From NCBI RefSeq assembly GCF_003334305.1, contig NZ_QOWS01000004.1: a stretch of DNA of 64,000 bases. One strand, given 5' to 3'. Origin of the DNA: Escherichia coli. Its GTDB lineage: Bacteria > Pseudomonadota > Gammaproteobacteria > Enterobacterales > Enterobacteriaceae. Position 1 is the stretch's first letter. Every line of letters begins with the position of its first letter. Position numbers: made by a program. Below, piece by piece: positions 29,101 to 32,100 of this stretch.

Positions 29101-32100
29101 CCGGATGCTATTATAAGCGGCAATAGTGTAAATAATGATAATATCGCTATCAGCGAAATGCTATTTGACATTATTATTCCCTGATAACCAAGAATGAATT
29201 TCTACGCCCAATTTATCATCCACTTCAACAAGTTCGCCATAGCCAGTTAGCGCGCCATTTACACGTATTTTTATTTTTTTCTCAGATTCAGGAAGCAGAG
29301 ATATTATTCTTTTTGCACAGAGTTCGTCTATTTCATATAGATTCATTATTTTCTTACCAAGAACAAACTCAATTTTTACAGGCAAGTCTTCAAAACTATT
29401 AATCATCTGATCGTCATTTTCATCATAAATCTCACTCTCGTTTTTTTTGATATCAAAATCATCTGTTTCAAAATCTTCCTCGTACTCAAAATGATCAGCC
29501 ATTTTTAACTCCTCTGGATAAATTAAATCACAAATTTTTGTATTATAAATAACCGCATAAGCCAAATTATTTGAGATTAATAAAACATCACCAACTTCAA
29601 TATCAACAAGACTTCTGTAACATGTTTTACTAAATCCAATTACAAAATGAATGGACCAATATAATGATTTTTTGTCTAACGCTGGAGCGTTTCCGTATTG
29701 GCAGACTGTGACTTTATCTAACCAAAGATTCAATTCCCCTGTTCATATTCTTATTAGTGGTTGAGCAGGGCTCAATACTCCATCAAATACTTTACCTACG
29801 TGCAAACGATTATATTTTAGTTCAGGATGCTTTAGATTTAACGGGGAACTGGATAAACTGAGCCATTCCCCTATTAACCTTTCCGTTTCTGGCATTAAAG
29901 CCATCCCAGCGAGCTCAGATGAAATTAAGGGAAATATTTCTCCAAGCAATACCCATCCAGACCAGCTGCCACTCTCTTCTGCTATCGGTAACCATTTAGC
30001 ACTAAATTCGGGCATTAATAATGCAACATCTTCGCCATTTTCTTTCCAATTTTGAAAAGTGGTTTCAAACGTATGAGTGTTTCGATTTACTTTCCTCAGA
30101 CCGAACATTAACTTTCATCCTTCTGATCGTTTTCGAATTTGCTTTCATTTTCTTGCTCCTCATAAGGCTGATGTCGTTGTCCTTGTCGTTCATCTTGCTC
30201 AGTCAATACCCAACGTTGTGCTGTAACTCATTATGAAAACTATTTAATTCCCTCATCATTGATAAGGTTGGACATCTCTTTCAACATGAGAGTCATTGAA
30301 GCTTTCGACCAATTTAGCGGAATGATAGGGCTTGGCGCTTCATGCAAAGTTCCCGACTTGTGGATATAGTTATAGCTTTCGGGAAGTGCCATTTCTGGTA
30401 CGCTCCTGCCATTTGCACCAATCATATTCTCGCCTGTTATTTGGGCCAATGATCTATTCATAAATTGTACTGAGTCATTCAAATACTCTTCCTTTCTTGA
30501 TTCTTTATAAACAATTGCTGCTGATTTTGCATACCATGAGTCAAAAAACCATTCTGCTTCTGTTGATGGAATGAAGCTCTTTTCTCTTTTTGCATGCGAA
30601 TTTTGATCGGTATCGGTTTTAATATCATTGAACCAAAAATTTGCCGACTGATAATTATCCTTCTCGTATCTTTTTATACCATACGGACCTGCTAGTTTTT
30701 TAACTATTTTTAGAACTTGCTCTTTTCTTCTGGTGTTTATCTTTGAAAGATTTGTAGGATAAATAACATTAAGTAAAGCCGCATCGGCTTCTCTGTAATG
30801 TTTATCTTTTTCCAGATAACCTGGGGATTCTCCCCCTAAATCAAGCTGTAACGTTATTCTTTCATAACCTTTATCTATGAGGTGGTTCAACCTCGTTGTT
30901 GAAAGAGTTTCATCCAGTTCATTGACTTTAGCTTCGCGTAGTAAATCAGAGACAAAAACAGAGTCTTTCTTCGAGAGTAGGTTTGACAAACGTTCCAGTC
31001 CAGAGGTCACCAGTGCAACGGAAGATGTGTTTAATCGGGCATCTTCTTCCCATGCTCCGGAATCTTCCATAACATAGAAATTGGCTTTATCCAGATAAGC
31101 AATCAGCAGCGCAACCGACTTTAATCGGTCACCTTTTTGCCAATCTTCAGCGTTAATAGTACCAGTGTTGATTGCTTGTATAAGGAGATCAAGGTAAAGA
31201 CCTAACGCATCATTTTGTTTATGGTTCCACAGCTGCGGCTTGCCTTCTTCCTGCACATCTGCCATCACGGGGGAGTTGCTGTCAAATCGGATATGCACAG
31301 CATTCATTTGCACGGGAACTCCATCCAGTCGTTTTGGGTTGCTAATGACGTCCTGCATCCGCTTAATCTGGTCGGGCGTAGACATATAATCCCACAGGGT
31401 GAGCAGAACCTTTTTTGCGGCTACACTATTTCCCTGATCTGATACTAATGCCATATAGCCCCATAAACTATCCCTCAACCAGACAGCATCATAGTGGGTT
31501 TGTGCCGCTGTTTTGTCATCTTCGAAAGTAGAAGCAAGAATAAACGTTCCCCAGGGTTTCTCCGTCAACGTTAACTTTCGTGTGTTTTCTGTTAATGTTA
31601 GCAATCCTTGAATTTCGTCTTTGGTATAGTGGCTCTTTATTTCATTTTGTAATTTGGCTGAGTGAATCAAAAGACGATAATTAGGATACTTATCTGGATT
31701 TAACGATAAATAACTTTTATCTGTTGCTGCCCCCGTGGAATTAAGAATGTTAAATACAGATTCACTCGTCACTTCTGCCCCTGTCGCCTGGCATGTGCCG
31801 CACGAAAATATACCAGCGAGCAGAAGAGTTAATGCAGATTTCCCTTTCATAAAATATTCCATCAATCGTTTGTTAAAAGCGTAGATAACCACTTATTTAA
31901 CAACTTGAAAATAAGGTGTTTTACCTGGGTTGTTACAAAAGGATTGCATTGCGTAAACGCTTTTTATTTACAACAAAATGGGGAAGTATTACGGCGATTG
32001 CGAAAAGTCTGAAGCGATTGAATTAAGATAATATAGAAAATCAGATACAGCAAAAATGGCAGATTGATCAGGTGAAGATAAATTGGAGCGGGCGAAGGGA

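Follow-up and report, generated by a model that had tools for sequence, protein, structure and literature searches.

The epaO locus

The gene epaO, a member of the SctQ/SpaO family, belongs to the island for the second type III secretion system of E. coli (ETT2) and is interrupted by an in-frame TGA in the Escherichia coli assembly GCF_003334305.1. The window, the whole stretch of DNA that was analysed, comprises 64,000 nucleotides of contig NZ_QOWS01000004.1. Single-frame translation of its minus strand from 30108 to 29161 gives one 316-codon frame that is broken once, at 29745-29743, where the minus-strand letters read ATA AGA ATA TGA ACA GGG GAA TTG. Translation from the canonical ATG (30108) stops after 121 residues, and a listing of open reading frames (ORFs) returns two pieces in one and the same frame, 121 aa at 29743..30108 and 190 aa at 29161..29733, the second opening with a TTG that is the first start-like codon beyond the stop. 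A preliminary description of this DNA had placed an in-frame TGA after 121 codons at this position, and sequence, ORF listing and translation all bear it out. RefSeq labels the epaO of strain 07-4299 (L001), which is 100% identical to that of the window, as a pseudogene with an 'internal stop'. The parts of the gene are as follows.

29161..30108, minus strand: epaO pseudogene (SctQ/SpaO homologue, ETT2), 315 codons with a single internal stop, identified by profile matches
29743..29745, minus strand: TGA nonsense codon W122* (ancestral TGG), from the sequence and the alignment of alleles
29746..30108, minus strand: residual N-terminal ORF of 121 codons, the SpaO_N region (ORF listing; PF26294 SpaO_N on homologues)
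29533..29679, minus strand: divergent SPOA1 domain, residues 144-192 (phmmer match to SpaO, PDB 4yx5, E = 2e-4 to 1e-3)
29182..29394, minus strand: SPOA2 domain, Pfam FliMN_C, residues 239-309 (PF01052, E = 8e-11; Pfam limits 239-308)

Profile searches were run with the epaO protein after Trp had been restored at codon 122. NCBIfam model NF006018 matches this protein at 490.2 bits (cut-off 223), with residues 2-315 aligned to profile positions 3-303 of 303, and TIGR02551 (SpaO_YscQ) matches it at 199.7 bits (cut-off 100.8). The SPOA2 domain, a homologue of FliN, is also matched by the SpaO SPOA2 structure 4yx1 over EpaO residues 243-309 (E = 4e-13). Whole-protein family models, the two SPOA domains and a location between sctP (SpaN/EivJ) and sctR (SpaP/EpaP) in a T3SS export-apparatus operon all point to the SctQ family, whereas the uninterrupted full-length frame of that family is missing owing to the TGA at codon 122; the locus is thus a pseudogene of the SctQ family and not a functional member of it. 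The stop separates the SpaO_N domain from SPOA1; SPOA1 follows it at a distance of 22 codons and the Pfam FliMN_C/SPOA2 domain at 117 codons, so that its earlier placement just upstream of the SpoA domain was loose.

The window allele also carries two charge-changing substitutions inside SPOA2, N278K and E280K (29269-29277; EKKIKIRV vs EKNIEIRV). Among 15 aligned alleles, L001 is the only other one with both.

Ancestry and frequency of the stop codon

The alignment used for the stop codon covers 15 E. coli epaO alleles, the window's among them. Codon 122 is TGG in six (L002, L003, L004, L006, L007 and L008), which together cover every divergent lineage, and TGA in the other nine (the window, L001, L005 and L011-L016). 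TGG is kept in O157:H7 493/89 and in the complete-island strains, and L004 has it though its epaO is 98.8% identical to that of the window. The strains with TGA include 07-4299, O111:H8, O26:H11 11368, O114:H49 and four others. Beyond these alleles, a 303-aa SctQ protein at 6001-6912 of L009 (P0013), 50% identical to EpaO, keeps the TGG within the motif KLWTGELNLW; it comes from a complete cluster with the gene order of ETT2 and pathogenicity island 1 of Salmonella (SPI-1), is assigned to E. albertii by its sources and lacks 12 residues of the EpaO acidic linker. The codon change is a TGG>TGA transition, W122*, and TGG is ancestral.

This comparison with other strains, proposed earlier as a check, therefore found the ancestral Trp codon in divergent E. 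coli lineages. It also corrects the statement that the stop aligns to an ordinary residue in SpaO, since the residue replaced is a Trp that is conserved in all aligned E. coli alleles without the TGA. A search for homologous proteins returned relatives of the E. coli and E. albertii type alone, and SpaO of Salmonella was not among them. SpaO was therefore compared through its PDB fragments and through a full-length sequence that was checked against those fragments only and agreed with them wherever the two could be compared; the residue opposite W122 is presumably Met, which we treat as no more than a lead.

The frequency of the stop was measured in complete E. coli genomes. The 948-base epaO matches 3205 of the 5426 genomes, and in all 3205 the match is annotated as 'YscQ/HrcQ family type III secretion apparatus protein' and lies between the SpaN/EivJ and EscR/SctR genes. 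Diagnostic 40-mers had the codon's third base at their centre, in such a way that every 28-base megablast seed must contain that base. The TGA 40-mer is found in 1081 of the 5426 genomes (1077 at 100% identity), which amounts to about a third of those that bear epaO. The TGG 40-mer with the window's flanks is found in 1503 genomes, and the TGG 40-mer with the divergent flanks of the full-island strains in 854 (455 exact), a count that partly overlaps with that of the other TGG search. Recurrence in 1081 complete genomes means that the TGA allele is neither a chance event nor a sequencing error.

State of the ETT2 island

Reference proteins from L008, whose island is essentially complete, were compared with the window by tblastn. 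No match was found in the window for eivF, eivG (secretin), eivE, eivA (SctV), eivC (ATPase) or eivI. The genes next to epaO are the eivJ remnant upstream and epaP, epaQ, epaR and epaS downstream, and the island adjoins a tRNA-Gly(CCC) gene at 32084-32157. Its main lesions are the following.

30108..30227, minus strand: eivJ remnant, the last 39 codons and TAA (tblastn); base 30108 is shared with the epaO ATG (TAATG)
30227..30235, minus strand: junction of the ETT2 deletion of about 8.7 kb, which covers eivF, G, E, A, C, I and most of eivJ (blastn against L008)
26351-27458, minus strand: epaS (SctU switch protein), spread over three frames by two frameshifts, with one stop in addition
24047-25225, minus strand: eprH (PrgH homologue), with four stops from a short out-of-frame stretch in a predicted transmembrane region

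The deletion joins L008 position 11146 to position 19873 and brings what is left of eivJ, its final 39 codons, up against the 3' end of the region of the GH15 (glucoamylase-like) gene; the eivJ remnant is annotated as 'missing N-terminus' in L001. In the blastn comparison the two flanks overlap by 9 nt, which is consistent with a deletion between short direct repeats. Further damage is spread over the remaining genes of the window: eprI and orgB are frameshifted, ygeK carries a stop, and orgA and eprJ are shortened. Related strains, too, have epaS annotated as a pseudogene. A functional ETT2 injectisome is thus missing EivG, EivA and EivC, and its EpaS, EprI and EprH are broken; with the eiv block gone and epaS, eprH, eprI, orgB and ygeK damaged, no injectisome can be built.

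The same junction between the GH15 gene and the eivJ remnant occurs in all nine TGA carriers examined. L004, a TGG strain, carries it as well, and parsimony would therefore place the deletion before the stop.

Two observations concern individual strains. The eprH gene is intact in the close relative 07-4299, so that the eprH lesion is confined to the strain of the window or to one closely related to it. O157:H7 str. EC10 was tried as the K1 strain EC10, which is said to have an intact ETT2, and was rejected, as it was isolated from urine and its island carries the same deletion.

Constraint and later lesions in TGA alleles

Substitution patterns differ between strains with and without the stop. 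Among full-island TGG strains, dN/dS (the ratio of non-synonymous to synonymous substitution rates) is 0.13 over codons 1-121, and over codons 123-315 it is 0.20. Among the TGA strains, represented by eight sequences, it is about 0.5 downstream of the stop, and their private changes comprise nine non-synonymous and one synonymous. At least nine non-synonymous changes in ten have a probability of 0.004 at an omega of 0.2 and of 0.37 at neutrality. Judged by these substitution patterns, constraint on epaO is relaxed in the TGA lineages, and the direction is clear despite the small sample.

Individual alleles have been damaged further. In L012 (O26:H11 11368) one nucleotide is missing from an A-run at nt 829, which shortens the C-terminal ORF to 76 aa; the stop codon of epaO is gone in L016, and L015 carries TTG126>TGG. 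In six of the eight distinct TGA alleles the C-terminal ORF is intact. L013 has K202I, which lies in the spacer between the Shine-Dalgarno (SD) hexamer described below and ATG203.

The TGA strains also fall into two 3' haplotypes over 29161-29502: that of the window and L016 is close to the 3' end of the TGG strain L004, and that of L005 and L011-L014 is different. The pattern suggests intragenic recombination after the stop arose.

A candidate internal start

[quoted passage not shown] A C-terminal product of epaO had been suggested in the same vein, with translation beginning at the TTG shortly downstream of the stop. All 68 start-like triplets in epaO were scored by the pairing of their upstream 17 nt with the anti-Shine-Dalgarno sequence, and three elements are relevant.

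29509..29514, minus strand: GAGGAG, Shine-Dalgarno-like hexamer 6 nt before ATG203, invariant in 15/15 E. coli alleles
29161..29502, minus strand: candidate EpaO-C ORF from ATG203 to TAG, 113 aa, acidic linker and SPOA2 (SD score and alignment)
29731..29733, minus strand: TTG restart codon of the preliminary description, codon 126, with GGGG 2 nt upstream and an SD duplex of -3.0 kcal/mol

The in-frame ATG203 (29502-29500), with GAGGAG 6 nt upstream, reaches -8.6 kcal/mol, the joint best value of the 68 triplets. The canonical epaO start, at -5.5 kcal/mol, is weaker. The codon also appears to sit at the right place: SPOA1 aligns with 4yx5 without gaps up to EpaO residue 192 (SpaO ~191), and MAFFT sets EpaO M203 beside SpaO V203 within one residue, the SpaO sequence here being the full-length one that was checked by PDB fragments only. 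In the 50%-identical homologue of L009 the corresponding motif is CCAGAGGAATTAATGATG, that is, GAGGAA followed by ATG ATG.

The general idea of a C-terminal product survives this analysis; the TTG does not. With a duplex of -3.0 kcal/mol, a GGGG that lies 2 nt away and a change to TGG in L015, TTG126 is a poor start. The search for a ribosome-binding site that had been recommended thus found a weak signal at TTG126 and a strong GAGGAG at ATG203. Since this internal start signal is intact and lies downstream of the TGA, the region, if transcribed, could still yield the 113-aa EpaO-C. A scan of 29000-32300 found no more promoter-like sites than chance would give (12 vs 10.4 expected) and, between the GH15 gene and epaO, no terminator that was convincing; it is uninformative on transcription. 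The EpaO-C ORF is probably not maintained, because the O26:H11 lineage has destroyed it too.

Origin of the stop and rival explanations

Taken together, these results make it very probable that W122* is an ordinary nonsense mutation in a decayed epaO of a dead ETT2 island. In the sequence of events that we propose, the 8.7-kb deletion between short direct repeats would have deprived ETT2 of the genes for its secretin, its gatekeeper, the SctV export gate and the ATPase. A single G>A change would then, most likely after the deletion, have arisen in an ancestor shared by O26:H11, O111:H8 and the rest of a large E. coli clade. Without a machine to assemble, selection on full-length EpaO would have gone, and the stop could have drifted to fixation alongside the lesions in epaS, eprH, eprI, orgB and ygeK. 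An EpaO-C fragment, if translated, would have no injectisome to serve. The preliminary description had judged a plain nonsense mutation most likely, a judgement upheld by a TGG>TGA change that is fixed in a large clade whose island lacks secretin, export gate and ATPase.

Several points weigh against this account. The dN/dS and private-change counts come from only eight TGA sequences, and part of the 3' variation of these strains looks like two recombinant haplotypes and not like independent mutations. The order of deletion before stop is a parsimony argument from nine sampled carriers out of 1081. In addition, epaP, epaQ and epaR are intact in the window directly downstream of epaO, and the SD-ATG203 motif is invariant in 15/15 E. 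coli alleles, as would fit a residual use of the epa remnant.

In another explanation, EpaO-C (113 aa, with SPOA2) is made from SD-ATG203 and has been retained for a role that needs no injectisome, such as in the homologous flagellar FliM/FliN C-ring or in binding the intact EpaP/Q/R remnant. A strong SD and ATG do lie at the site homologous to GTG203 of SpaO and are invariant in 15 alleles, and the motif is partly kept, as GAGGAA and then ATG ATG, in the 50%-identical homologue. The invariance counts for little, however, at a divergence below 8%, since GAGGAG also encodes Glu-Glu. The EpaO-C ORF is intact in six of eight distinct TGA alleles and its SPOA2 is a FliN homologue, yet a frameshift has destroyed SPOA2 in O26:H11 11368, another strain has lost the stop codon, and the SPOA2 of the window itself carries the charge-changing N278K and E280K. 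Constraint after the stop is relaxed, with a dN/dS of about 0.5 and nine private non-synonymous changes to one synonymous. Phenotypes, flagellar ones included, have been described for degenerate ETT2 islands (review PMC11068852), but in Salmonella SpaO-S is itself dispensable for secretion (PMC6358110). On balance we regard the retention of EpaO-C for such a role as very unlikely. The more specific proposal that EpaO-C from SD-ATG203 adds to the flagellar or cell-surface phenotypes of degenerate ETT2, for example via the flagellar C-ring or export apparatus, seems to us distinctly improbable.

Full-length EpaO could also still be made if the UGA were read through by near-cognate tRNA-Trp or recoded as selenocysteine. 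UGA is the leakiest stop codon of E. coli and tRNA-Trp its usual near-cognate reader; the ancestral residue is Trp, so that such reading would restore the wild type, and the A that follows the UGA does not provide the strongest context for termination. Basal read-through, however, amounts to about a per cent or less with wild-type release factor 2 (RF2), and any full-length EpaO would still face the missing secretin, SctV and ATPase. The ancestral codon is a plain TGG, hence there is no conserved recoding site, and selenocysteine or other programmed recoding was rejected for that reason; a feature like a selenocysteine insertion sequence (SECIS) is not expected, and no search for one was made. 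Continued production of full-length EpaO by either route is highly implausible. The chance that sequencing or assembly produced the TGA in error, which had been left as a way out, is practically nil: the identical TGA 40-mer in 1081 independently sequenced complete genomes refutes it.

The O157-type allele and the 'frameshifted' annotation

The Prokaryotic Genome Annotation Pipeline (PGAP) gives epaO the flag 'frameshifted' in all the non-O157 strains that were fetched, even where a 315-codon ORF is open from the canonical ATG. The sole allele without the flag is the O157-type one, which encodes a 328-aa protein (WP_001303644.1). The start of this protein is an ATG that lies 40 nt upstream and out of frame (window position 30148) and is likewise preceded by GAGGAG; its frame is continuous owing to the loss of 1 nt at codon 12, which breaks the canonical frame. 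Because NF006018 aligns from residue 2 of the protein that starts at the canonical ATG, the O157 form is the mutant allele. The flag most likely stems from comparison with the O157-type protein and would be an annotation artefact elsewhere, so that in most other E. coli it should not be taken as decay.

Significance

The inactivation of epaO reported here is already known in outline, through the internal-stop flag of RefSeq and the well-documented decay of ETT2. To this the present analysis adds precisely which codon changed, W122* (TGG>TGA), and how often the change occurs among 5426 complete genomes. Its importance is small, as one more marker of documented ETT2 decay. W122* is nonetheless a clean lineage marker that is shared by about 1,080 complete genomes, O26:H11 and O111:H8 among them. 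Should residual EpaO products be sought, the place to look is ATG203 with its GAGGAG, not the TTG.

Comparison with known systems

Deletion isoforms of ETT2 have been catalogued, including an eivJICAEGF deletion between direct repeats (PMC11068852; PMC5422975). The window resembles this 8.7-kb isoform in its glyU-linked island, in the deletion itself and in the scattered frameshifts and stops. The epaO gene has been listed among those pseudogenised in one phylogroup and intact in others (PMC5422975), and a stop in another epaO allele has already been considered in print with the tandem translation of SpaO in view (PMC7058095). The lesion treated there is that of the O157:H7 Sakai type, also seen in two ST69 isolates, in which the same gene is inactivated by a different mutation, the 1-nt deletion at codon 12; unlike the window, O157 epaO keeps TGG at codon 122.

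Among functional systems, the gene order around epaO is like that of SpaO (Salmonella SPI-1), Spa33 (Shigella) and YscQ (Yersinia), with spaN/eivJ, spaO/epaO and spaP/epaP in succession. EpaO shares with the SctQ family an architecture of N-terminal domain, SPOA1 and SPOA2, and its SD and putative start codon at codon 203 match the internal GTG of SpaO that gives SpaO-S. Unlike the members of that family, however, EpaO is cut at codon 122 and its ATPase and SctV partners are deleted, which makes the job of the family impossible in this strain.
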